Of a stretch of DNA of 21,527 nt, positions 2,995 through 13,890 are shown one piece after another; position 1 is the first letter of the stretch, and each line of letters begins with the position of its first letter. The stretch is taken from the NCBI GenBank assembly GCA_964373695.1, contig CAYJVT010000005.1, positions 1 through 21,527 on the forward strand. The letters are read 5' to 3'. The notes beneath the pieces are model-generated. The model had not been told where the DNA came from. It ran no database searches and saw only the letters and a program-made list of their open reading frames with translations. This DNA comes from an uncultured archaeon. Its GTDB lineage: Archaea > Aenigmatarchaeota > Aenigmatarchaeia > GW2011-AR5. Position numbers and translations under genes: made by a program.

Positions 2995-5900
2995 ATGAGA
3001 AAAGCGCTTTTGGTCGCATTTGTCCTGATGATTTACGCAGATGTTGCTTTCTCACAGTCACTCTTCACGCCTTTTCCAAACCCTGTCGACAACAGCGAGG
3101 GATGCCGCATTGCGATAATAACTGGAAGGGGGGAGATCAATATATTTACTTCTGGAGGACAAAGAATAGGGACGATGACTGAAGGACCAAAGTATTCATC
3201 AAGGTTCAATTATTATTACTATTATTATGAAACGTCTAATCTTCAAGGTAGAGGCTCATATTATATGCAATTTAGAGGAACTGATGGGAAGATAAAAAAA
3301 GGAGTCTTCACAGTTGAACAAGGCTTAAAATTTCAGGACGGCAGGCCTAGATGCGCTGCATCGGAACTGCTTGAGCGGGAGCCTGAAGAAGAAGCTTTGC
3401 CGCCAGAATACAATCTTGAAGGCATCATCTCCGACAGCGCCCTGAGCACCGTCATAAGGACGACCATCGACATACTGTTCGCGAGGCCACTAGAGGCCAG
3501 CATACAGCCCGTGGAGCAGAGCACGGTGCCGCAGAGCCTGAAGAGTGTCAACTCGCTTCTTTATACGGTTACACTGAGAAACCCGAACAGCTTCCCCCTC
3601 GATGCAAAGATTGACAACTTGGAGGACATAACGAGGCCTGCTACACTTTCCATAACGAGAGCCGGGGCGCCACTGGCTGCCGGAAGACTGGCCCAGATAG
3701 CAGGAGGCGGCGAACTGGCAGTACAACTCACGGTGAGCTCGCCAGACGAATGCCCGAACGTCGGCGATACATGCAGGAAGGATTTCTCGATAAAAGTTTC
3801 GTCTTATCAGGGCACGAGGAAAATAGGCGATGCCACAGTTTCAGCTGCCTACATCCTGGTATCGTCGCCTTCGCCCAAAATCATGCCGGTAGAGAACGAG
3901 GCGACGGAGAAGGAGGGCGCCATCAATGCCATAACCAGGCAGGGAGCACCTGTGGAATACAGCTTCTACGTGTTTGACGACGAGAGCGTGAACAGCGGGT
4001 TCGTGCCTTACGATGTTTTATTGACGCAGAGAAAACTCACCGGCACCGGGACGTGGGCTGTCAGCGTGCAGAGCCGGGTCACAATAGAAAAAATAGTCCA
4101 GAAGACAGTCGGCGGGATAACTGAAATGAAGGACGGGATGAAAAGAGTAACAGTGAGCGTGAGCCCGCCGTCGCAATCACCATCAAACAGCCTGAAACCC
4201 GGCGACGAAGCGACATTCGAGATAACGGCGAGGCGCTCTGGAACTACGGATGCCGGAAGCAAGGTTGTCATAAAATACACCATATCGACGCACGGCGACG
4301 GCGTATGCGACCCGGACGAAAGCACCGAGACTTATCCGCAGGACTGCAAGGCGGATGACTTATTTGGATGCGCCTTCAACGGCAGATGCGAGAGACGTGA
4401 GGACAACGGCGTGAGCTTCAGCGCCGCGCTCAAAACAGACAATCCCAGAAATTATGATTTCCTTATATGCAAGAGCGGCGTGGCCGAAGACGTATGCCTC
4501 CGGGCTGTCAGCAACGTGCAGCAAGAATGCAGCTTCACCAAGAACATGAAAGGGCCGTGGGAACCAAAAAGCTGCATAGCCGGGACAAGGGTGCTGCCTC
4601 AGGGCGCTTCTGCTCACGAAGTCTTTTCTGCATGTGCCGACAAAATCGGCGAATACTACTTGCTTGCGGCGACGCGAGGCATAAGCCCGCAGAAGATAAA
4701 GAGCGCGAACACTTATCGCTACGAATGCCCGTTCATCGACATACCGTCCATAGACGGGGTGATAACTAATTTGCGCCAGACAAGGACAAATATGAACGGC
4801 CAGAAAGCCACCCTTATCGAGGAAAACAATGAAATACAGACGAAGGAACTGGCCGGCACGGCAACTTCCAAGGAGATATCAACAAAGGCCCAGAACGCCA
4901 TATGCATAGACACATATGCCTCCATATTCCTAGAGATAGACTCGAGGATAGCTTCCCTCACTAACATCCTTAACACGCCTTCACTTTCAGCGGCTTCGCA
5001 GATTTACGGCGACAAATCTCTTTACGAATGGGATGCCGACTTCCAGGGTGATATAGCGCTGCGCCAGGCGAACGGATGCTTCTCAGAGCTGCGGTCAATA
5101 CTCAACATAGAAAGCGCGACTTTCACGCCAGCATCGGTCAGGGGCGGCGAATCTGTCGCGCTCCGCGTTGTTGTGACAAAAACCGGCACCCAAGATTATT
5201 ACGGCTCTGTTTCCTGCAACATAACCAAGCCGGGCGAGAGCAAGCAGACAATACAACTGACACCACAATGCGTCCGGATATCTGAGGAAATAAAAAATTT
5301 CGGCGCTGAAATTACTACTGCTAATTCCGGCGCTTTGACAGGAACGTGCACTGTTTACGGCTCGCTGAAGAACGACTGCTCTTCTGCCACAATACACGAC
5401 AAGAAAGACGTTTCAGGCAGCGTTTATTCGATACAATATTCGGTGTCTTCCGTTTCCGGAAGCAACGCCATATGCACGGACGCCTCAGGCGCAGCTGCAC
5501 CGGCGACAATGCCATGCACCGTCACGCTCAACGGCAACGAACAGGCTAGGACGGGATTTGCCGCGCATCCAGAATATGGCGCCACAAATTTCACTTGCGC
5601 CCGATGCTCTATAACGCGAAGCAGCGGCAAAACGGAAGAATGCACATTCACGTCAAGAAACGGACTCTCGTCGGTTTTCAACTGCCAGGCCGCCGGCGTC
5701 GGCACTTACAATCTCAAGGGATATGTTGTCGACAATGAGGACTGCAAGCCTGCCACTCCACAGGATTCGCAGACGTCGGGAATATTATCAACTGACTATC
5801 TATGCTACGGCCCCGGAGACGGAAGTCTAACAGCAGGCGAGGAATGCGACCCGGCGAGGACGGCGCAGCAGACCGTGACGGACTGCAACAATCTCGGAAG

Positions 5901-8900
5901 AAGCTCCCCGCACTGGACTTGCAACCAGCAGTCGAGATGCGTTGACAGCACGGCGCCGGCAATATCCAATATAGGCATATCCGGCACATCAATTCTCCAG
6001 GCATCCACAAACGAAGTCGCAAGATGCAAGTATGACGAGCAGGACAAGCCGTATTATAATACAATGACGCCAGACGAAACCCCTTACGGGAGTTCGCACC
6101 GGTGGACGGTTCTCGGGTTGACCAACACCCCCAGAACGCTGTACATAAAATGCACGGACGGCACCAACATAGGCACAGCAACATTTGACGCGAGCCTTTC
6201 GGCCGCATGCACCGGCACAGCACCGCAGAACGCCGTGCTTTGCACAGACGACGACTCTGAGCTTACATCGGGCGCTGCGAGGACGCTGGTTGAGCAGTGC
6301 AGCGCCAACAAGTGCGAGTATATATGCGACGCCAGCAGTGGATATGTGAAGCAGGGCAATTCCTGCATAAAGCCCAACGAGCCGCCGGTGATAAGCGGAG
6401 TCGCGATGCAGGGCTCTTGCATCATAGGGAACACGATAACGGTTACATGCTCGGCAAGTGACCCCGACGGCACGCTTTCCTCCCCTAGCGGCGTCATAAA
6501 AATAAATGGCGCCACGCAGCCGGCAACTTTCGCGAACGGCGTTTACACGACATCCGCTTACCAGATAATCCAGACAGCAGGAACGGAGATAAAGGCGACA
6601 TGCTTTGTGACGGATTCATCAAGAGAAAGCACCAATCTTACCGGCCGCCTCTGCACCGTCCAGGTATGCCCGAACATGCCTACATTCAATAGCATATCAA
6701 TTAGCCCGAAAGAGCCGCCGAAGGGAGGACTTGTTGAGATAAGGTTCACTTCCTCAAAGGCTCTTACACAGAATCCTCAGATTATCATAAAGGCCGGCTC
6801 GACCCAGGCTGCGGCCGCCATAGATTCATCACGCTCAAGCGGGCTGAATTATGTTTACAGCGCAAGGCTGCCTGCATACGCCGGCGACGCCATGCTTGTC
6901 ATAAGAGGGCAGTCAGAGGCGAACTGCATAGGCGAGGCGACAAGGCCATTCCTTGCCGTTGCATCGGCAGGCGCTCCGAAACCCTCGTCGGTAATTGTGA
7001 CTGCAAACCCGGCTGCAATCTCAGCCGACGGCACGACACGTTCCACGATAGCCGCGACGTTCAGGAACGCCGCCGGCGCTCCAATGCCTTACGAGAGCAC
7101 GGTTTCGCTTTCGACCACTTCAGGAAGCATAATGCCATCATGCGCCACCAGAGCCGACGAATCCACATGCTTCGCTTACCTGACATCATCCCAAACACCT
7201 GGAGAGGCGACGGTGACGGCAGCATGGAACGGACTCTCCGGCATCACGGCTGTCAGTTTCCTCACCCCGGCGCCGACAGACATCTACCCGCCGAACATAT
7301 TCAACCCCAAGCCGGTCAGCGGCTCCGTGGTCCAGACAAGAACTCCTTCAGTAAGCATAACGACCGACGAGTCCGCGACATGCAAGTATGCAACTCAGCT
7401 GAATGCAGCGTCTGCGAGCGCAATGACGCCTTCAAACGGCGGCTTGCTGCACACTGCAATTCTCACTCTGACAGACGGGACGAACACAATCTACTTCAGG
7501 TGCCGCGACACTGCCGGCAACGAGGGTAATGATTATCGTTACATCATCTCATACCAAGCAACGGAGCCGCCATCAATCACTTGCGGCGGAACGGCACCTT
7601 CAGGCGCAGGCGTAGTGAAAAGCAGCGCTTCGGGCGCAGGAACATGGAGCTACAAGGAAACAGGGACGCTCAATGCATGCGAATGGCGATGCGCCGACAC
7701 GCATGTCAAGGACGGTAATTCATGCGTGCCGAGGCAGACTGCAACCCCGACATGCACTGATGTCACTGCAGAAACGATGCAGGTATGCGCAGGCGACGAC
7801 ATCGTGGAGAAAAACACGAGAAGAACGCTCGTCACGGCATGCACCAACGCGGTGAAATGCGAATACCAATGCAAGCCGGGCTATAGAATTTCCGGGGATT
7901 CGTGCGTTCAGGAAACAAGTCCCACAGGAACTGACTGCACCAACCCGCCGCAGTTTGCGCAGCTCTGTCCCGGCGACAACTCGAACCAGGCCGCCGCCCT
8001 CGTTGATGCGTGCACGGCAGAAACCAAGTGCGAGTACATGTGCATTACAGGCCGTGTCAGGGAAGGAAGCACTTGCACATCTTCATCAGAATTTTCCGCC
8101 ACAGCCACAGCTACTCCCGAAACCCCCATAGCCGGCCAGCAGTTCACGCTTTCGGTGGAGTTTGCAAACACCAACAGGCTTTTCGCTGACGGGCTCTCGG
8201 CAGGCAGGCAGATATGCAGCTCATCTCCATGCATCCTGACTGACACAAAAACATCTGCAGGCACTTATACCTACACTTTCTGGAACTCAGAGCTGTCGCG
8301 CTCCGTGAAGAAGAGCGTGACGGTAAGGGCGAGCAACGCGCCTGCTGTGGAGCCGGTCTTCGCCGAGCCGAGCATATGCCAGTCCGGAGGCGCGCTCCGC
8401 CTGAAGTGCAGGGTCAGCGACGCGGATGCAGCCGACAGGGAAAGCTTTGATGTCGAGTTTTACGCCGGAAGGTGCGAGTCCAACACCTTAGGAAACACAA
8501 GAAACTGCTTTGATACAAGGGAATGGGCGGATTCATCCGGCAGTTACAGGCTCTTGGGCGGAAAGGAAAGCACCGGACTGTACTCAGTTCTGTTCAACAT
8601 ACCTTCCGACTCGTCGGGTAAGGGCATTGCTGCCACTTGCAGGGCCCGGGACCAGACAGGTGAATACTCCCGGTGGGGAGACGCCTACCCGCTCTGCGTA
8701 GTTGACGTGTGCGACAATGCGCCAAGGATAATGACGCTCCAAACTTACAGAGGCAGCGAACAGAGGACGCAGTTCACCGCGGCCGACACGCTGAGCGTGA
8801 AATTCACGTCAGACAGGGCACTGAGCAACGCAGCGGTCAGGATAAAGACAGGGACAAACGAGTACGATGCGCAGCGTTCAGGCTCGTCAACTGCTCCCTA

Positions 8901-11900
8901 CGAGTTCAGGCTGCCGCTTTCCGGAGTCCAGGCCGGCAATGCACAAGTCGTGGTTTCAGGATACCAGGACGCCAGCTGCATAGGAAGCAGGCTTGCCGAT
9001 ATTAATGTAGAGGAAACAAGGACTGGTCAAACCCCATCATCACTCAGACTGACTTCGTCACCATTTGCCGAAGCTTCGGGAGGAAAGAAGAAGACAACTG
9101 TAACAGCGACATTCCTCGACAATGCAGGCAATCCGATGCCCTTTGCTGCGTCTCTAGTGTTCGAGGTGATGGAAGGACTGGCTATGATTTCCCCGCCAAC
9201 ATGCTCGACCACACCCACCCAATCATCATGTGCAGTTGATGTGACCGAAACGACCGGTGATGCATCCATTAGGGCAAGAACTGGCACGCTGACATCAAAT
9301 ACACTGCGAATTGAATTTTCTTCTGCAACCCCGGCGTGCTCCGGAACGGCACCTTCAGGCGCAGGCGTAGTGAAAAGCGGCGCTTTGGGCGCAGGAACAT
9401 GGAGCTACAAGGAAACAGGGACGCTCAATGCATGCGAATGGCGATGCGCCGACACGCATGTCAAGGACGGTAATTCATGCGTGCCGAGGCAGACTGCAAC
9501 CCCGACATGCACTGATGTCACTGCAGAAACGATGCAGGTATGCGCAGGCGACGACATCGTGGAGAAAAACACGAGAAGAACGCTCGTCACGGCATGCACC
9601 AACGCGGTGAAATGCGAATACCAATGCAAGCCGGGCTATAGAATTTCCGGGGATTCGTGCGTTCAGGAAACAAGTCCCACAGGAACTGACTGCACCAACC
9701 CGCCGCAGTTTGCGCAGCTCTGTCCCGGCGACAACTCGAACCAGGCCGCCGCCCTCGTTGATGCGTGCACGGCAGAAACCAAGTGCGAGTACATGTGCAT
9801 TACAGGCCGTGTCAGGGAAGGAAATACATGCGTCCTCTCACAAGGCGGAACCTCCATTCCAGGCAGGCCCGTGAGCCTCAGGGTCGTTTCGAACCCGGCT
9901 TCAATCGAAATTGGCGGCGGCTCCAGGACGTCGGAGATAACGGCGACTTTCCTCAATAATGCGGGCAACCTGCTGCCTTTTGCAGGGACTATAACATTCA
10001 CGACCACCGCAGGCAGCCTCATACAGACATCATGCCCAACCAATGCCCAGCAGTCGTCTTGCGGCGTCATGCTCCAGTCCTCGAACACGGCTGGAATTGC
10101 AAGGGTCACTGCGACGTGGGAAAACATAAGCAATGTCGCGAACGTCGTATTCACTTCTCCCGCATCGGACACCACGCCGCCTAATGTAGTGAACCCGCAG
10201 CCCCTCGAAACCGTCACTTCACTTCCAATGACGCTTTCGTTCCAGACAGATGAAAGCGCGAGATGCAGATATTCCAGGACGCCCGGAACGGCATACGGGA
10301 ATATGCAGTCGACGACTCCATTGGGCAGGGCACACCAGTGGACTCTGGACGGCCTCACGAACGGCCTGCAGAGATTCTACATAAGGTGCGAGGACGAGGC
10401 GCGCAACGCGGCCCAGCAGGACTTCCAGCATTCATTCAATGTTCAGGTAGCTGGAAACCAGCAGGTCACACTGCTCCGCATATCGCCCAGCAACCCGTCT
10501 ATACAGGCGAACGGCGTCTCAACGACAGCAATAACGGCCAGGTTCACTAACAGCGCCGGTGAAACGTTGGCTTCTGCAAGAACAGTGGACTTCACGACGA
10601 CGGCCGGCAGGCTGCTGCAGAACTCATGCTCAACGACGCCTTCGGAAACGACATGTTCGGTTATACTGCGCTCGTCCACGACGCCCGGGATAGCGACTGT
10701 GTCGGCAACCTCCGGCACGCTGTCCTATGAAACCGGCGTCCAGTTCACGGAACAGCCCCAGCCTTCATGCACTGGAACCCTTCCGGCCAACTCCGAGCTC
10801 TGTTCAGGGGACAACGCGGGACTGTCGACGGACACGCCAATAACTCTTGTCAGCTCGTGCAGTTCGCCCAAGTGCGAATACAGATGCATTGCAGGTTACG
10901 CAAAGCAGGGCGATACATGCGTTCCTTCAAGCTCGACAACCCAGCTGTACAACACCGAGATAATGTCCTTGAGCGTTGTAAATGAAACGCCCGTCACGAC
11001 GCCCATCAACGCCAGCATCGGCATCGCAAACAAGCGCAACGAGGCGAGAAGCGCCCTGGTCACATGCAGGTTCAACTCAACTGCAGTGACGTCGGCGTGC
11101 ACCGCTCTTGCCGCAAATGGGAACGCGCTTGTCCAGATATCCTCACTGGCAAATGCGCCTGGCATCACCACTATAACATGCTCCGTCAACTCGACGACAG
11201 CGGCGTCGTGCCAGAGTTCAGCGCTGGACCACACGTACCCGTCAGCCGCAACGACGCTGGTCACCGAGCCGAAGATGCTCTACATACTTTCCGGCAGCGT
11301 GCCCCAGTCCCTGGTGAGGGGAACGCCGATAAACGCCCAAATAAGCGTAAGGAACCCGATAGAAGTCAGGTACGGCCGCGTCTCATGCACTTTCGATAGG
11401 CCTGGCGGCTCGACTGTCATCAACTCGTCTCAATGCCTCCCTGTCGGCCAGAACTCGGAAAGGGCATACAGCGTGCCGACATACGCAGACGTTTCCGGAA
11501 TATGGATGCTCAACTCATGCAACGTGACGACCTCAAGGTCCAGCGACTGCTCGCTCACCGACAACGTCAGCACAAGGACTTTCAACAGCGCAGTCAACAT
11601 CCTTGACAGGACACAGCTCACCATAAACTCGATAAGCGCCCTGCTGGCGTCCGTGCAGCTTGGGGACGAGAGCGCGGTCAATGTCAGCGTATCGAACCCG
11701 GCGCAGATAGACAAGTTCGCCCGCGTCAGCTGCAGGGTCACGAGGCCGAACAGCGGGCAGAACCAGTATTCAAGCCAGTGCACGCCGATGGCTTTCCAGA
11801 CATCGAAGCAGTTCCTGCTGAACTTCACGCCTACCATGGCCGGCACCTGGACGATAAGCTCCTGCAGCGTCGACGGCTCGGTGAACAGCGACTGCTCCGC

Positions 11901-13254
11901 AAGTTCGCAGGAGGACAACTTCGGAAGCAGCAGCACGGTCGAAGTCCTGTCAGCGGGCTCTCAGTTCATACAGCCGGCAGTATCGGTTTCCCATTCGCCG
12001 GCAGAGCCGAACCTCGGCGAGACGGTGTCCGTAACCGGAACCTCCTCCAGCACCAACATAAGGCAGATAAAGATATACGTGGACGACGGCGTCGTGTCGT
12101 GCAGCACATCACCCTGCACCTATTCAGCCACGTACAGGAGCGGCACGCACAGGTATTACGCCACGGTGGAGAACACGTTCCTGCAGACGGCAAGGGACCC
12201 GCCGGCCAACAATTCCTACAAGAGCTTCACGGTCAGACCGACAGCCGGCAACGCCACGCAGGCTGCCGGATGCTCCATAGTGATAACGTCGCCTTCGTGC
12301 ACGTTCAACAGCAGGACGAGCAGGTACGAAGTCTCGGCCGTGTACAACTGGAGAGGCGGCGATCATTCAAGGACAATAATAGACGGCCTGGAGAAGATAC
12401 AGACTCCCGGCACGAGCAATTTCAGCTACTCCGAGCCGTTGCCGACTCCAGGCGACAAGAACATCATCGCCAAGGTTCAGGACTCGTCGAACAGGGACCT
12501 CTGCTCGACCTCCACACGGCTCACGTGCAGCCCGGCCGCGCCGAAGGAAGAGCTCATCGTCACTAGAGAGATGCCGGATGTCTCAAAGCTCGGGTTCATC
12601 GCCGTCAGGCTCAACCTGGCTCCCGGCCGCGACATAAACAACTTCACGATAAAGGAGCACGTGATTCAGGGGCTTTCGCCGCTCAACCTTGCGGTGCAGT
12701 CCAACACCAGCTTCGCCAACATATCCGGCCCGAGAAGCGTGAGCCTGGACCGCGACTATTCGCAATACACCATATCGACTGCGCTGAAGGACGGAAGAAA
12801 TGTCAGCATATCATACAGACTTAACATAGACAAGGAGGGAGAGTACGAATTCCTTTCAGTGTCGGAGTACGAAGGAAAGAAGAAGGAGGAAAGGGCTACA
12901 CTACTTGTGACGAACTGCGAGCAGCCCGTATATACGCTTGCCGTGTCGCCTGACGGGGAATGCAAGAAGTTCAGGACGGCCTGCGAGGTGCCTTTTGACT
13001 GGAGAAGGGTCGACCAATGCCCGATTCTGAAGAGTGAGACAGATGCGACCGGCGAGGAAGGCGGAGGAGGAGACTCGACGCTGGCGATAATCGTAGTCGT
13101 TGTCGTGCTGGTGGCCCTCATAATACTTTCGTGGAGATACGAGGACGAGATAAGGGAGAAGATAAAGGAGCTCAAGAAGAGGATAGAGGAATGGCGGGAA
13201 GGAAAGGAAGAGAAGAAGCCTTGGGAGAATGAATACCGTGCAAATAGCGCTTAA
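2995..13254 (+). CDS. Giant (3419 aa) Cys-rich cell-surface adhesin-like protein, single-pass membrane anchored
   Basis: Uninterrupted 10.26-kb ORF. N-terminal signal peptide MRKALLVAFVLMIYADVAFS. Four invasin/intimin Big_1-like domains (~6979-7266, 9031-9321, 9865-10158, 10462-10752), three DxxPP...T-x-E-x-A-x-C-x-Y modules and eight C..CE(Y/W)xC..GxxC modules. C-terminal TM LAIIVVVVVLVALIILSW (13081-13134) followed by a charged tail. Confidence 0.92.
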   Translation: MRKALLVAFVLMIYADVAFSQSLFTPFPNPVDNSEGCRIAIITGRGEINIFTSGGQRIGTMTEGPKYSSRFNYYYYYYETSNLQGRGSYYMQFRGTDGKIKKGVFTVEQGLKFQDGRPRCAASELLEREPEEEALPPEYNLEGIISDSALSTVIRTTIDILFARPLEASIQPVEQSTVPQSLKSVNSLLYTVTLRNPNSFPLDAKIDNLEDITRPATLSITRAGAPLAAGRLAQIAGGGELAVQLTVSSPDECPNVGDTCRKDFSIKVSSYQGTRKIGDATVSAAYILVSSPSPKIMPVENEATEKEGAINAITRQGAPVEYSFYVFDDESVNSGFVPYDVLLTQRKLTGTGTWAVSVQSRVTIEKIVQKTVGGITEMKDGMKRVTVSVSPPSQSPSNSLKPGDEATFEITARRSGTTDAGSKVVIKYTISTHGDGVCDPDESTETYPQDCKADDLFGCAFNGRCERREDNGVSFSAALKTDNPRNYDFLICKSGVAEDVCLRAVSNVQQECSFTKNMKGPWEPKSCIAGTRVLPQGASAHEVFSACADKIGEYYLLAATRGISPQKIKSANTYRYECPFIDIPSIDGVITNLRQTRTNMNGQKATLIEENNEIQTKELAGTATSKEISTKAQNAICIDTYASIFLEIDSRIASLTNILNTPSLSAASQIYGDKSLYEWDADFQGDIALRQANGCFSELRSILNIESATFTPASVRGGESVALRVVVTKTGTQDYYGSVSCNITKPGESKQTIQLTPQCVRISEEIKNFGAEITTANSGALTGTCTVYGSLKNDCSSATIHDKKDVSGSVYSIQYSVSSVSGSNAICTDASGAAAPATMPCTVTLNGNEQARTGFAAHPEYGATNFTCARCSITRSSGKTEECTFTSRNGLSSVFNCQAAGVGTYNLKGYVVDNEDCKPATPQDSQTSGILSTDYLCYGPGDGSLTAGEECDPARTAQQTVTDCNNLGRSSPHWTCNQQSRCVDSTAPAISNIGISGTSILQASTNEVARCKYDEQDKPYYNTMTPDETPYGSSHRWTVLGLTNTPRTLYIKCTDGTNIGTATFDASLSAACTGTAPQNAVLCTDDDSELTSGAARTLVEQCSANKCEYICDASSGYVKQGNSCIKPNEPPVISGVAMQGSCIIGNTITVTCSASDPDGTLSSPSGVIKINGATQPATFANGVYTTSAYQIIQTAGTEIKATCFVTDSSRESTNLTGRLCTVQVCPNMPTFNSISISPKEPPKGGLVEIRFTSSKALTQNPQIIIKAGSTQAAAAIDSSRSSGLNYVYSARLPAYAGDAMLVIRGQSEANCIGEATRPFLAVASAGAPKPSSVIVTANPAAISADGTTRSTIAATFRNAAGAPMPYESTVSLSTTSGSIMPSCATRADESTCFAYLTSSQTPGEATVTAAWNGLSGITAVSFLTPAPTDIYPPNIFNPKPVSGSVVQTRTPSVSITTDESATCKYATQLNAASASAMTPSNGGLLHTAILTLTDGTNTIYFRCRDTAGNEGNDYRYIISYQATEPPSITCGGTAPSGAGVVKSSASGAGTWSYKETGTLNACEWRCADTHVKDGNSCVPRQTATPTCTDVTAETMQVCAGDDIVEKNTRRTLVTACTNAVKCEYQCKPGYRISGDSCVQETSPTGTDCTNPPQFAQLCPGDNSNQAAALVDACTAETKCEYMCITGRVREGSTCTSSSEFSATATATPETPIAGQQFTLSVEFANTNRLFADGLSAGRQICSSSPCILTDTKTSAGTYTYTFWNSELSRSVKKSVTVRASNAPAVEPVFAEPSICQSGGALRLKCRVSDADAADRESFDVEFYAGRCESNTLGNTRNCFDTREWADSSGSYRLLGGKESTGLYSVLFNIPSDSSGKGIAATCRARDQTGEYSRWGDAYPLCVVDVCDNAPRIMTLQTYRGSEQRTQFTAADTLSVKFTSDRALSNAAVRIKTGTNEYDAQRSGSSTAPYEFRLPLSGVQAGNAQVVVSGYQDASCIGSRLADINVEETRTGQTPSSLRLTSSPFAEASGGKKKTTVTATFLDNAGNPMPFAASLVFEVMEGLAMISPPTCSTTPTQSSCAVDVTETTGDASIRARTGTLTSNTLRIEFSSATPACSGTAPSGAGVVKSGALGAGTWSYKETGTLNACEWRCADTHVKDGNSCVPRQTATPTCTDVTAETMQVCAGDDIVEKNTRRTLVTACTNAVKCEYQCKPGYRISGDSCVQETSPTGTDCTNPPQFAQLCPGDNSNQAAALVDACTAETKCEYMCITGRVREGNTCVLSQGGTSIPGRPVSLRVVSNPASIEIGGGSRTSEITATFLNNAGNLLPFAGTITFTTTAGSLIQTSCPTNAQQSSCGVMLQSSNTAGIARVTATWENISNVANVVFTSPASDTTPPNVVNPQPLETVTSLPMTLSFQTDESARCRYSRTPGTAYGNMQSTTPLGRAHQWTLDGLTNGLQRFYIRCEDEARNAAQQDFQHSFNVQVAGNQQVTLLRISPSNPSIQANGVSTTAITARFTNSAGETLASARTVDFTTTAGRLLQNSCSTTPSETTCSVILRSSTTPGIATVSATSGTLSYETGVQFTEQPQPSCTGTLPANSELCSGDNAGLSTDTPITLVSSCSSPKCEYRCIAGYAKQGDTCVPSSSTTQLYNTEIMSLSVVNETPVTTPINASIGIANKRNEARSALVTCRFNSTAVTSACTALAANGNALVQISSLANAPGITTITCSVNSTTAASCQSSALDHTYPSAATTLVTEPKMLYILSGSVPQSLVRGTPINAQISVRNPIEVRYGRVSCTFDRPGGSTVINSSQCLPVGQNSERAYSVPTYADVSGIWMLNSCNVTTSRSSDCSLTDNVSTRTFNSAVNILDRTQLTINSISALLASVQLGDESAVNVSVSNPAQIDKFARVSCRVTRPNSGQNQYSSQCTPMAFQTSKQFLLNFTPTMAGTWTISSCSVDGSVNSDCSASSQEDNFGSSSTVEVLSAGSQFIQPAVSVSHSPAEPNLGETVSVTGTSSSTNIRQIKIYVDDGVVSCSTSPCTYSATYRSGTHRYYATVENTFLQTARDPPANNSYKSFTVRPTAGNATQAAGCSIVITSPSCTFNSRTSRYEVSAVYNWRGGDHSRTIIDGLEKIQTPGTSNFSYSEPLPTPGDKNIIAKVQDSSNRDLCSTSTRLTCSPAAPKEELIVTREMPDVSKLGFIAVRLNLAPGRDINNFTIKEHVIQGLSPLNLAVQSNTSFANISGPRSVSLDRDYSQYTISTALKDGRNVSISYRLNIDKEGEYEFLSVSEYEGKKKEERATLLVTNCEQPVYTLAVSPDGECKKFRTACEVPFDWRRVDQCPILKSETDATGEEGGGGDSTLAIIVVVVVLVALIILSWRYEDEIREKIKELKKRIEEWREGKEEKKPWENEYRANSA
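7587..8068 (+). repeat. Copy 1 of a 482-bp intragenic direct repeat
   Basis: By eye it matches 9342-9823 (offset 1755) at 480/482 positions. It encodes three Cys modules. Confidence 0.95.
9342..9823 (+). repeat. Copy 2 of the 482-bp intragenic direct repeat
   Basis: Differs from copy 1 only at agcagcgcttcg vs agcggcgctttg (SSASG vs SGALG). Confidence 0.95.
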
Positions 13255-13677: not shown

Positions 13678-13731
13678 CTTGCGTGACTATAGAAGAATTT
13701 GTATCAGAAACGGGCCTGTAGCTCAGCCTGG

Positions 13732-13770
13732 ACAACTTTTTGAAAAAAGTTGTATCAAAAATCGGGGAAA
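13732..13770 (+). other. Non-canonical D-loop tRNA intron (about 36-39 nt; exact splice sites uncertain)
   Basis: Insertion between AGCCTGG and TAGAGC. CCTG (13727-30) can pair with CGGG (13763-66) as the central helix of a BHB-like motif. A strict BHB reading (13733-13768) leaves a 12-nt D-loop, so the boundaries are not resolved. Confidence 0.75.
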
Positions 13771-13788
13771 TAGAGCACCTGCCTTTTA

Positions 13789-13829
13789 ATTTGGAAAAGG
13801 TTTTTGATTGACCTTTTTCCAGAAAGGTC
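13789..13829 (+). other. Canonical 37/38 tRNA intron (41 nt) with bulge-helix-bulge motif
   Basis: C32-U33-U34-U35 pair with intron AAGG (13824-27). Bulges are TA|A and TC|A. The outer helix is TTTGGAAAAGGT / ACCTTTTTCCAGA. Confidence 0.9.
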
Positions 13830-13890
13830 AGCAGGGAGTCGCGGGTTCGAATCCCGTCGGGCCCATTAATTTCTGTCCTTCAGTATAGAA

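Follow-up and report, generated by a model that had tools for sequence, protein, structure and literature searches.

Families of introns that are common to different tRNA genes have been described in the Thermoproteales, the mechanism of their spread being stated as unknown (PMC4090602; bioRxiv 10.64898/2026.10.13.758758), and this "intron transposition" has no known vehicle (PMC4090602). The transposed introns of Fujishima et al. (2010, Mol Biol Evol 27:2233), as summarised in the same two papers, are near-identical sequences that lie in different tRNA genes or positions of one genome and whose removal depends on the bulge-helix-bulge (BHB) motif. For Asgard tRNA introns, a 2026 census examined several possible routes of arrival and found none (bioRxiv 10.64898/2026.10.13.758758). 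Here, we describe a comparable situation in an uncultured archaeon of the phylum Aenigmatarchaeota, in a stretch of 21,527 nucleotides (hereafter the window; contig CAYJVT010000005.1 of assembly GCA_964373695.1) in which both introns of a tRNA-Lys(UUU) gene carry a copy of a 30-nt hairpin module. The counterpart of the Thermoproteales families consists of the D-loop intron of tRNA-Lys(UUU), a D-loop intron of tRNA-Glu and a 37/38 intron of tRNA-Gln, all of which carry this common module. In contrast to the Thermoproteales introns, the repeated unit is the module and not the whole intron, and it also occupies operon spacers and the flanks of tRNA and rRNA genes, an intergenic counterpart that neither PMC4090602 nor bioRxiv 10.64898/2026.10.13.758758 mentions. 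Moreover, it is present in both orientations and in about 100 copies in one genome, and its host is a DPANN archaeon with a single alpha-type EndA splicing endonuclease.

The module also recalls several kinds of hairpin repeat. Like the repetitive extragenic palindromes (REP) and bacterial interspersed mosaic elements (BIME), the REPIN-RAYT system and the palindrome-associated transposable elements (PATEs) of IS200/IS605, it is a short extragenic palindrome with a conserved unpaired tail that lies behind genes, varies in copy number between relatives and shows a strand bias. Unlike these, its arms vary between copies without losing their complementarity, its multiple copies form direct tandems instead of inverted doublets, it also sits inside spliced tRNA introns, and the module-rich genomes are without a cognate Y1 transposase. 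The hairpin repeats (RHEs) of sponge mitochondria, as outlined in PMC2800124, are likewise tiny, encode no enzyme and have invaded the intergenic regions of very compact genomes, but they belong to another domain of life and, as far as that outline goes, bear no sequence relation to the module. A non-exhaustive search of the literature on Aenigmarchaeota tRNA introns, on tRNA introns resembling miniature inverted-repeat transposable elements and on hairpin repeats found no description of the module, nor of any intron module common to intergenic DNA. To our knowledge, organelle RHEs have no link to endonuclease-spliced introns. We see in the module a new form of two known kinds of element, the transposing BHB introns on the one hand and the REP-like palindromic repeats on the other.

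The reading proposed here is that of a proliferating hairpin repeat sheltered in EndA-spliced introns, to which we assign a probability of about 60%. Both hairpins would be copies of one short module, in which complementary arms (5 bp) enclose a T-run, 2-4 nt and an A-run and an ATCAAAA tail comes last, and this module would have multiplied across Aenigmatarchaeota genomes as a small non-coding selfish repeat. Selfish behaviour is suggested by a copy number ranging from 0 to about 100, by the occurrence of tandem, nested, intergenic, tRNA/16S-flanking and intronic copies, and by precise differences between congeners. In the studied genome, the module survives in tRNA introns only, where EndA would clean the pre-tRNA.

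The tRNA-Lys(UUU) gene lies on the forward strand at 13712-13865 of the window, with three exons (13712-13731, 13771-13788 and 13830-13865) delimited by a cloverleaf read by hand and by orthologues. Excision of 13732-13770 and 13789-13829 yields a canonical 74-nt tRNA with acceptor (GGGCCUG/CGGGCCC), D (GCUC/GAGC), anticodon (CCUGC/GCAGG) and T-arm (GCGGG/CCCGU) stems, an anticodon loop CUUUUAA and discriminator A. Its D arm equals that of the intron-less orthologue of a congener (genome G020). Intron 1 (13732-13770, + strand, 39 nt) interrupts the D-loop between G19 and U20; its junctions 13731/13732 and 13770/13771 are set because the D arm of the G020 gene (L146), GCTC-AGCCTGGTA-GAGC, is uninterrupted. 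It consists of the 30-nt module followed by a 9-nt stretch, TCGGGGAAA (13762-13770, + strand), a 3′ adaptor that is complementary to exon CCUG(G) and holds the 3′ splice site; in the minimum free energy (MFE) fold, 13762-13766 of this adaptor pairs with 13727-13731. Intron 2 (13789-13829, + strand, 41 nt) occupies the canonical position 37/38, with a boundary that slides by one A. No further tRNA-Lys(UUU) gene was found in the assembly, a DPANN metagenome-assembled genome (MAG) of 1,020,131 bp in 60 contigs that is 91% complete, so that both introns presumably need to be removed. The tRNA-Lys(CUU) gene on contig C25 has the same 3′ half. With default settings, ARAGORN called no tRNA in the window, and with introns allowed it mis-called this gene as a tRNA-Gly with a 75-nt intron; the Rfam tRNA model gave a partial match of 16.6 bits, and no Rfam match in the window reached the gathering threshold.

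The module copy of intron 1 occupies 13732-13761 in sense (+ strand), with arms at 13732-13736 and 13749-13753, a T/A core at 13737-13748 and the tail ATCAAAAA at 13754-13761. The copy of intron 2 lies in antisense (- strand) at 13801-13830, with the head TTTTTGAT at 13801-13808 and arms at 13809-13813 and 13826-13830. The preliminary description of this DNA had proposed one 30-nt hairpin element per intron, on opposite strands and with perfectly repeated arms, and this is what the sequence shows: 13801-13830 is TTTTTGAT-TGACC-TTTTTCCAGAAA-GGTCA on the + strand, 13732-13761 becomes TTTTTGAT-ACAAC-TTTTTTCAAAAA-GTTGT once reverse-complemented, and TGACC/GGTCA and ACAAC/GTTGT are both perfect inverted repeats. 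Two details are corrected, since the final A of copy 2 (13830), previously placed in intron 2, is exon nucleotide 38, and since the intron 1 stem extends beyond its perfect 5-bp arms to reach 9 bp (13732-13740 with 13745-13753). The exact degenerate pattern given in that description occurs at two places only in the 1,020,131-bp assembly, which are these two copies. When intron 2 is aligned to either strand of intron 1, the best local score is 16, a value reached in 4 of 5000 dinucleotide shuffles of intron 1 (mean 8.4, sd 1.5).

Beyond these two copies, the module has the consensus NNAAC-T4/5-N2-4-A4/5-GTTNN-ATCAAAA(A), i.e., a hairpin with 5-bp arms and a tail. It was searched by a fixed 3′-half pattern and by a profile hidden Markov model (HMM), and not by a covariance model because the gap placed by MAFFT fell within the 5′ arm. 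Trained on 45 module copies from other genomes only, the HMM returned as its top four matches in the studied genome C6:8983-9008, C12:9442-9468, window 13736-13760 (+) and window 13825-13802 (-), with E-values of 2e-4, 3e-4, 0.02 and 0.07, the remaining matches having E-values of at least 0.48; all top four lie in tRNA introns. A relaxed search for a T-run/A-run hairpin beside ATCAAAA also found four copies, every one in a tRNA intron: tRNA-Lys intron 1 (sense), tRNA-Lys intron 2 (antisense), the D-loop intron of tRNA-Glu on C12 (sense) and the 37/38 intron of tRNA-Gln on C6 (sense). A fifth match to the relaxed rule, on C38, looked unrelated, and the HMM scan of this genome found 0 intergenic copies against 4 in tRNA introns.

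Two of these introns are close to each other. Intron 1 of tRNA-Lys(UUU) and the D-loop intron of tRNA-Glu have in common ACAACTTTT, a 16-nt exact block, a GGGAAA 3′ end and the same ACAAC/GTTGT arms. To judge from their sequences, they are close paralogues at different D-loop positions, which points to an intron having been copied from one tRNA gene to another. At least four other tRNA genes of the studied genome (G000:C5:56777-56886, C30:6857-6987, C44:3343-3433 and C25:9-161; L003-L006) have introns of a second family, GCCCTTTT[C/G]AAAAAAGCGCYGGCGGAAAA, to which the D-loop intron of tRNA-Lys(CUU) belongs. At intergenic sites of another genome, G024, the hairpin module is also followed by the motif AAGCGYNNNCGGAAA.

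At the scale of the phylum, the genome counts rest on the pattern AAAGKTNNATCAAAA, which is the 3′ half of the module, with the reversed pattern as a control. Within the same family, the pattern is present in 38 of the 44 genomes, with 261 matches against 20 for the control, and in the Aenigmatarchaeota sample it is present in 123 of 201 genomes, many of which have 0-2 copies. The number of copies per genome thus ranges from 0 to 99, with bursts of 99 (G024), 30, 18, 14 and 13; G025 holds 28. A perfect 5-nt complement of the 3′ arm is located within 30 nt upstream in 69 of 81 unique copies, these being anchored on the 3′ arm and tail only, and 12 different arm pairs are used (TAAAC, CAAAC, GAAAC, TGAAC, GCAAC, TGACC, ACAAC and others). 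The covariation of the arms, seen between only two copies in the preliminary description, therefore extends over the family with 69 perfect cases and 12 arm pairs, and the further copies and patchy occurrence among relatives that it anticipated are found, both in other tRNA introns and outside them, in intergenic spacers and downstream of rRNA and tRNA genes.

The contexts of these copies are diverse. The module is located inside D-loop, anticodon-loop and T-loop introns of many tRNAs, as well as directly 3′ of tRNA ends and of the 16S 3′ end. In spacers between protein genes, the stop codon often falls within the 5′ arm (TAA-AC, TGA-AC), and a Shine-Dalgarno sequence and an ATG often follow the module, at a module-to-start-codon distance that ranges from 6 to more than 40 nt. 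In many intron copies, ATCAAAA is followed by one more arm, a distal repeat of the 3′ arm and the third arm in all, and the 5′ arm together with this distal arm forms the BHB inner helix. Where several copies occur together, they are direct tandems spaced 27-34 nt apart without cargo between them, and nested copies are also seen. In G024, whole-module direct tandem arrays comprise 2-3 units with a 29-30 nt period (C2:419583-419627, L245; C1:15066-15110, L235), and two module copies come straight after the 16S rRNA 3′ end (GGATCACCTCCT; C2, about 239574-239658). The intergenic cassettes of G024:C2 often show a second type of hairpin, NNNN-CTTCTCAGAG-NNNN, after ATCAAAA-CGG. A TGACC/GGTCA hairpin stands ahead of the Shine-Dalgarno sequence in a 78-nt G024 insert and in L228. 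At another locus (L010, on G005:C6; locus positions about 1440-1560), 11 nt including the start codon (ATGGCAACTTT) flank a module-containing insert on both sides; the insert also brings GAGGTG, and the 5′ arm of its hairpin is the duplicated gene start itself.

The hairpin of each intron competes with an alternative pairing, as had been noted from the outset, and this alternative turns out to be the predicted splicing motif. According to the folding models, the hairpin is not the splicing structure and the competing pairing would form the BHB in both introns, though at best a relaxed one in intron 1. In intron 2, the central helix joins 13783-13786 to 13824-13827 (C13783-G13827 and, by the last two digits, U84-G26, U85-A25 and U86-A24), the two 3-nt bulges are 13787-13789 and 13828-13830, with cleavage after the second bulge nucleotide on each side, and an inner helix of 11 bp pairs 13790-13800 with 13813-13823. 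The pre-tRNA folds to -55.2 kcal/mol with this BHB enforced against -57.1 for the MFE, and the unconstrained MFE structure already has the inner helix. With its 4-bp central helix and two 3-nt bulges, intron 2 fits exactly, in the modelled fold, the textbook canonical 37/38 intron of the helix-bulge-helix-bulge-helix type (hBHBh′). It differs from the latter in that a dispersed repeat, present as an inverted copy, provides its inner helix and loop, the core of copy 2 being the 3′ strand of the inner helix. The GGUCA arm supplies GG to the central helix, UC to the 3′ bulge and A38 to the exon, and because it is built of BHB and exon nucleotides this 3′ arm cannot vary freely. The rival TGACC/GGUCA hairpin, if formed, would destroy the BHB motif and the anticodon stem.

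In intron 1, the hairpin is strong (9 bp) and within the MFE structure. The alternative joins UCAAAAA (13755-13761) to UUUUUGA (13737-13743) and CCU (13727-29) to GGG (13765-67). The tail AUCAAAAA is thus able to pair with the T-run and produce a relaxed BHB with pairs C27-G67, C28-G66 and U29-G65 (last two digits), bulges at 13730-32 and 13769-71 and UUUUUGA/UCAAAAA as inner helix, and these bulges match the junctions deduced from the empty site, each junction lying behind the second nucleotide of a 3-nt bulge under this pairing alone. Since the junctions fit only this less stable pairing, intron 1 would have a relaxed BHB at best. In the tRNA-Gln gene of C6, the BHB has a central helix CUUU/AAGG and bulges GG|U and AA|A.

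EndA is the presumed processing enzyme. The sole EndA gene of the studied genome (G000:C2:46161-46745; L057:1222-1806) encodes a 194-aa protein of the alpha type, recognised by a single PF01974 match of 97.5 bits, and its closest solved structure is the M. jannaschii enzyme (1a79, E 2e-35). Compared with the latter, it has a lysine-rich 6-residue insert (LKKGPKS) directly ahead of the catalytic His; DPANN alpha4 EndA enzymes with inserts have been associated with disrupted tRNA genes (PMC5829648). EndA would presumably remove both tRNA-Lys introns. The EndA gene adjoins two intron-rich tRNA genes (C2:45652-45809 and 45965-46030). In the window, a 3419-aa open reading frame (2995-13254, + strand) occupies most of the DNA upstream of the tRNA-Lys(UUU) gene.

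Comparison of related genomes provides sites with and without the module, and empty-site orthologues, which had been called for as support, exist at tRNA-Lys, at tRNA-Gln and at two operon junctions. The D-loop intron of tRNA-Lys(UUU), present in the studied genome, is absent from G020. In G020, the intron of tRNA-Gln shows the 5′ arm and the distal arm but neither proximal arm nor tail, and in another congener, G019, a nested insert of 57 nt interrupts the module of this intron. Decay has affected the proximal arm (GCTGT) and the tail (ACCAAAA) of the tRNA-Glu introns of G019 and G020, while the distal arm still covaries with the 5′ arm (ACACC/GGTG); this combination indicates that selection keeps the BHB helix and not the module hairpin. 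Intron content varies gene by gene within one genus, and an intron of about 40 nt in the T-loop of tRNA-Gln is present in G020 and G019 (L172/L173) and absent from the studied genome (L002).

The operon junctions belong to the genus g10. At the first, G025 reads TAGTGAGAGCATG and G024 has 77 extra nucleotides between stop and start; at the second, G025 reads TAGCATG and G024 has 78 extra nucleotides, including AGGTGG 6 nt before the ATG. The G025 spacers measure 4 nt (TAGTGA...ATG junction) and 1 nt (TAGC...ATG junction), and the extra DNA of G024 consists in both cases of the module and a second hairpin. At both junctions, the empty site already has the outer 1-3 nt of the 5′ arm (TGA, C), to which the 3′ arm of the insert is complementary. 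Because these outer nucleotides pre-exist, the two cases hint at microhomology-guided or target-templated insertion. No target-site duplication was seen at the tRNA-Lys D-loop site, and no direct repeats flank the insert at the two G024/G025 sites. At a third G024/G025 site, the module in G024 faces an unrelated sequence of similar length in G025; of four more comparisons, one gave no match, one matched only other copies of the repeat, one had its flanks on different contigs and one, which is the second junction above, was informative. The filled/empty differences are presumably insertions rather than deletions.

The family is strongly biased towards sense copies. A script counted 14 sense and 4 antisense copies embedded in tRNA genes, and inspection by eye of 60 further loci added 14 sense and 0 antisense copies, for a total of 28 against 4. 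All four antisense copies are in 37/38 introns, namely those of tRNA-Lys(UUU) here, tRNA-Lys(CUU) in G004 and G026, and tRNA-Arg(UCU) in G026, and degenerate antisense versions (TTTTTGGT, with one arm mismatch) exist in G006, G007 and G009. The tRNAs concerned have CUUNUAA loops, and the flipped TGACC copy supplies AAGG, UC and A at the 3′ splice site. The antisense copy of intron 2 is an old exception common to tRNA-Lys(CUU) and tRNA-Arg(UCU) of other genera. Outside tRNA genes, 400 kb of G024 contain 15 copies lying between two co-oriented genes, 6 that follow and 5 that precede a gene of the same orientation, and 7 that run antisense to both neighbours, 2 of which are actually sense tRNA copies. 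By strand, G024 has 24 forward and 75 reverse copies, and flipped copies directly ahead of a Shine-Dalgarno sequence and ATG are seen in L228 and L236. The earlier expectation of copies in both orientations as a general rule thus fails. Likewise, the opposite orientation of the two tRNA-Lys copies, which had been taken as an argument for a DNA-level element, is a weak one in a sense-biased family; orientation alone does not make this point, and the intergenic copies make it better.

Several of these observations weigh against a proliferating repeat sheltered in introns. All compared genomes are MAGs, the difference in the tRNA-Lys D-loop intron between congeners may be a gain or a loss, and the BHB conformer of intron 1 is, in silico, 8.6 kcal/mol less stable than the hairpin conformer. 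PF01797 (Y1_Tnp) had no match in G024, which is 90% complete with 99 copies, or in G025, which is 56% complete with 28 copies, an absence whose weight is limited by the incompleteness of these two MAGs. The T4/A4 core is similar to the organism's own promoter signal: upstream of its start codons, the studied genome has A at -35..-32, T at -30..-27 and again A at -26..-23, a pattern that from its layout would be a leaderless-type signal made of the B recognition element and TATA box. Finally, the sense bias is strong, about 26 spacer copies of G024 being co-oriented with a neighbour against 5-7 that are not; random insertion at the level of DNA would not lead one to expect it, and it agrees with a function in RNA or with a route mediated by RNA, although a non-RNA cause is possible, since a flipped copy places two T-runs on the sense strand. 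An RNA-level function is what would be expected if the module were a cis-element of the transcript, kept by selection and only secondarily present in introns. Such an element could be an intercistronic or 3′-end RNA hairpin, a terminator-promoter cassette, or a leader giving a ribosome-binding site, and besides the bias it would account for the stop codons in the 5′ arm (TAAAC, TGAAC), for the Shine-Dalgarno sequence and ATG that often lie downstream, for the resemblance of the T-run/A-run to a TATA-like signal near -27 and for the phylum-wide presence of the module. Yet the orthologous operon junctions of a congener do without it, the genes simply abutting, its distance to the start codon varies widely, and neither the range of 0-99 copies per genome nor the tandem and nested arrays fit such a role. 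Moreover, the studied genome has its four copies in tRNA introns and none between genes, and a promoter or terminator within the sole tRNA-Lys(UUU) gene would do harm. We therefore regard a selected cis-element as unlikely. Two specific roles for intron copies were rejected: that of a terminator, which intergenic copies may still be but which would be lethal inside the only tRNA-Lys(UUU) gene, and that of an intron promoter for a separate 3′ piece of a split tRNA. In the latter case, no more than about 19 nt separate the T/A core of tRNA-Gln from the distal arm downstream of it, so that a start 25-27 nt downstream of the core would fall in this arm and truncate the BHB partner.

The hairpin with its conserved single-stranded tail, together with the strand bias of G024, is also what would be displayed by a REP/PATE-like repeat that a Y1 (HUH) transposase, of IS200/IS605 or RAYT type, mobilises in trans, and Y1_Tnp genes are present in 19 of the 44 family genomes, including the studied one (C52:1390-1746). 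However, the module forms direct tandems and not inverted REPIN doublets, its arms vary within one genome, unlike those of REP families, and PF01797 does not track copy number, being absent from the two most copy-rich family genomes and also unmatched in G019 and G020. Mobilisation by such an enzyme is thus very unlikely, and the co-occurring transposase anticipated by the preliminary description is not borne out. The IS200/IS605-type Y1 open reading frame of the studied genome (138 aa) is accompanied by a fragment at C17:1544-1720, and no link of either to the module was seen. Convergence, in which A/U-rich hairpins would arise separately in BHB introns that need an inner helix, has in its favour that the BHB motif and exon A38 impose the 3′ arm of copy 2 and that unrelated tRNA-Lys 37/38 introns also end in AAGGTC. 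It is largely refuted, and highly improbable, given that the hairpin is the BHB helix in neither intron, that intergenic copies without any BHB have the same ATCAAAA tail and arm complementarity, and that an HMM built from other genomes recovers both copies. Mere resemblance by chance of two A/T-rich introns of low complexity would agree with the unremarkable genome-wide BLAST of the copy pair alone (21.8 bits, E about 4-8) and with a core that is nearly its own reverse complement, so that orientation rests on the 8-nt head alone. The shuffling result, the place of both copies in the HMM top four and the retention of the antisense copy in orthologous introns of three genera leave this reading virtually no probability, and we consider it refuted. 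Of the original proposal of palindromic mobile elements in tRNA genes, tolerated through EndA, the family, its contexts and the empty sites stand, and the both-orientation rule and the transposase do not.

How new copies of the repeat arise is hinted at, in sequence, by microhomology with the target or templating on it. A tentative and rather doubtful extension of the sheltered-repeat reading is a DNA-level mobile element without its own transposase, whose arms are matched to, or templated on, the target and which, on landing in a tRNA gene along with a short exon-complementary adaptor, would found a new EndA-spliceable intron. The tRNA-Gln case tempers the claim of intron gain by the module, which had been part of the preliminary description, as the module there occupies the loop of an intron of which a congener has a module-free version. 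If true, such an element would make a route of archaeal intron gain directly observable, and operon junctions would be rewired by it as well, through the ribosome-binding site that it brings along. The module-bearing introns explain why standard tRNA finders miss the essential tRNA-Lys(UUU) gene. More broadly, the module ties together introns of different tRNA genes, both orientations, and intergenic insertions that differ between congeners, and because it links introns with intergenic insertions the vehicle becomes traceable by sequence alone. Filled and empty insertion sites can be compared, which offers a concrete handle on the origin and spread of archaeal tRNA introns.

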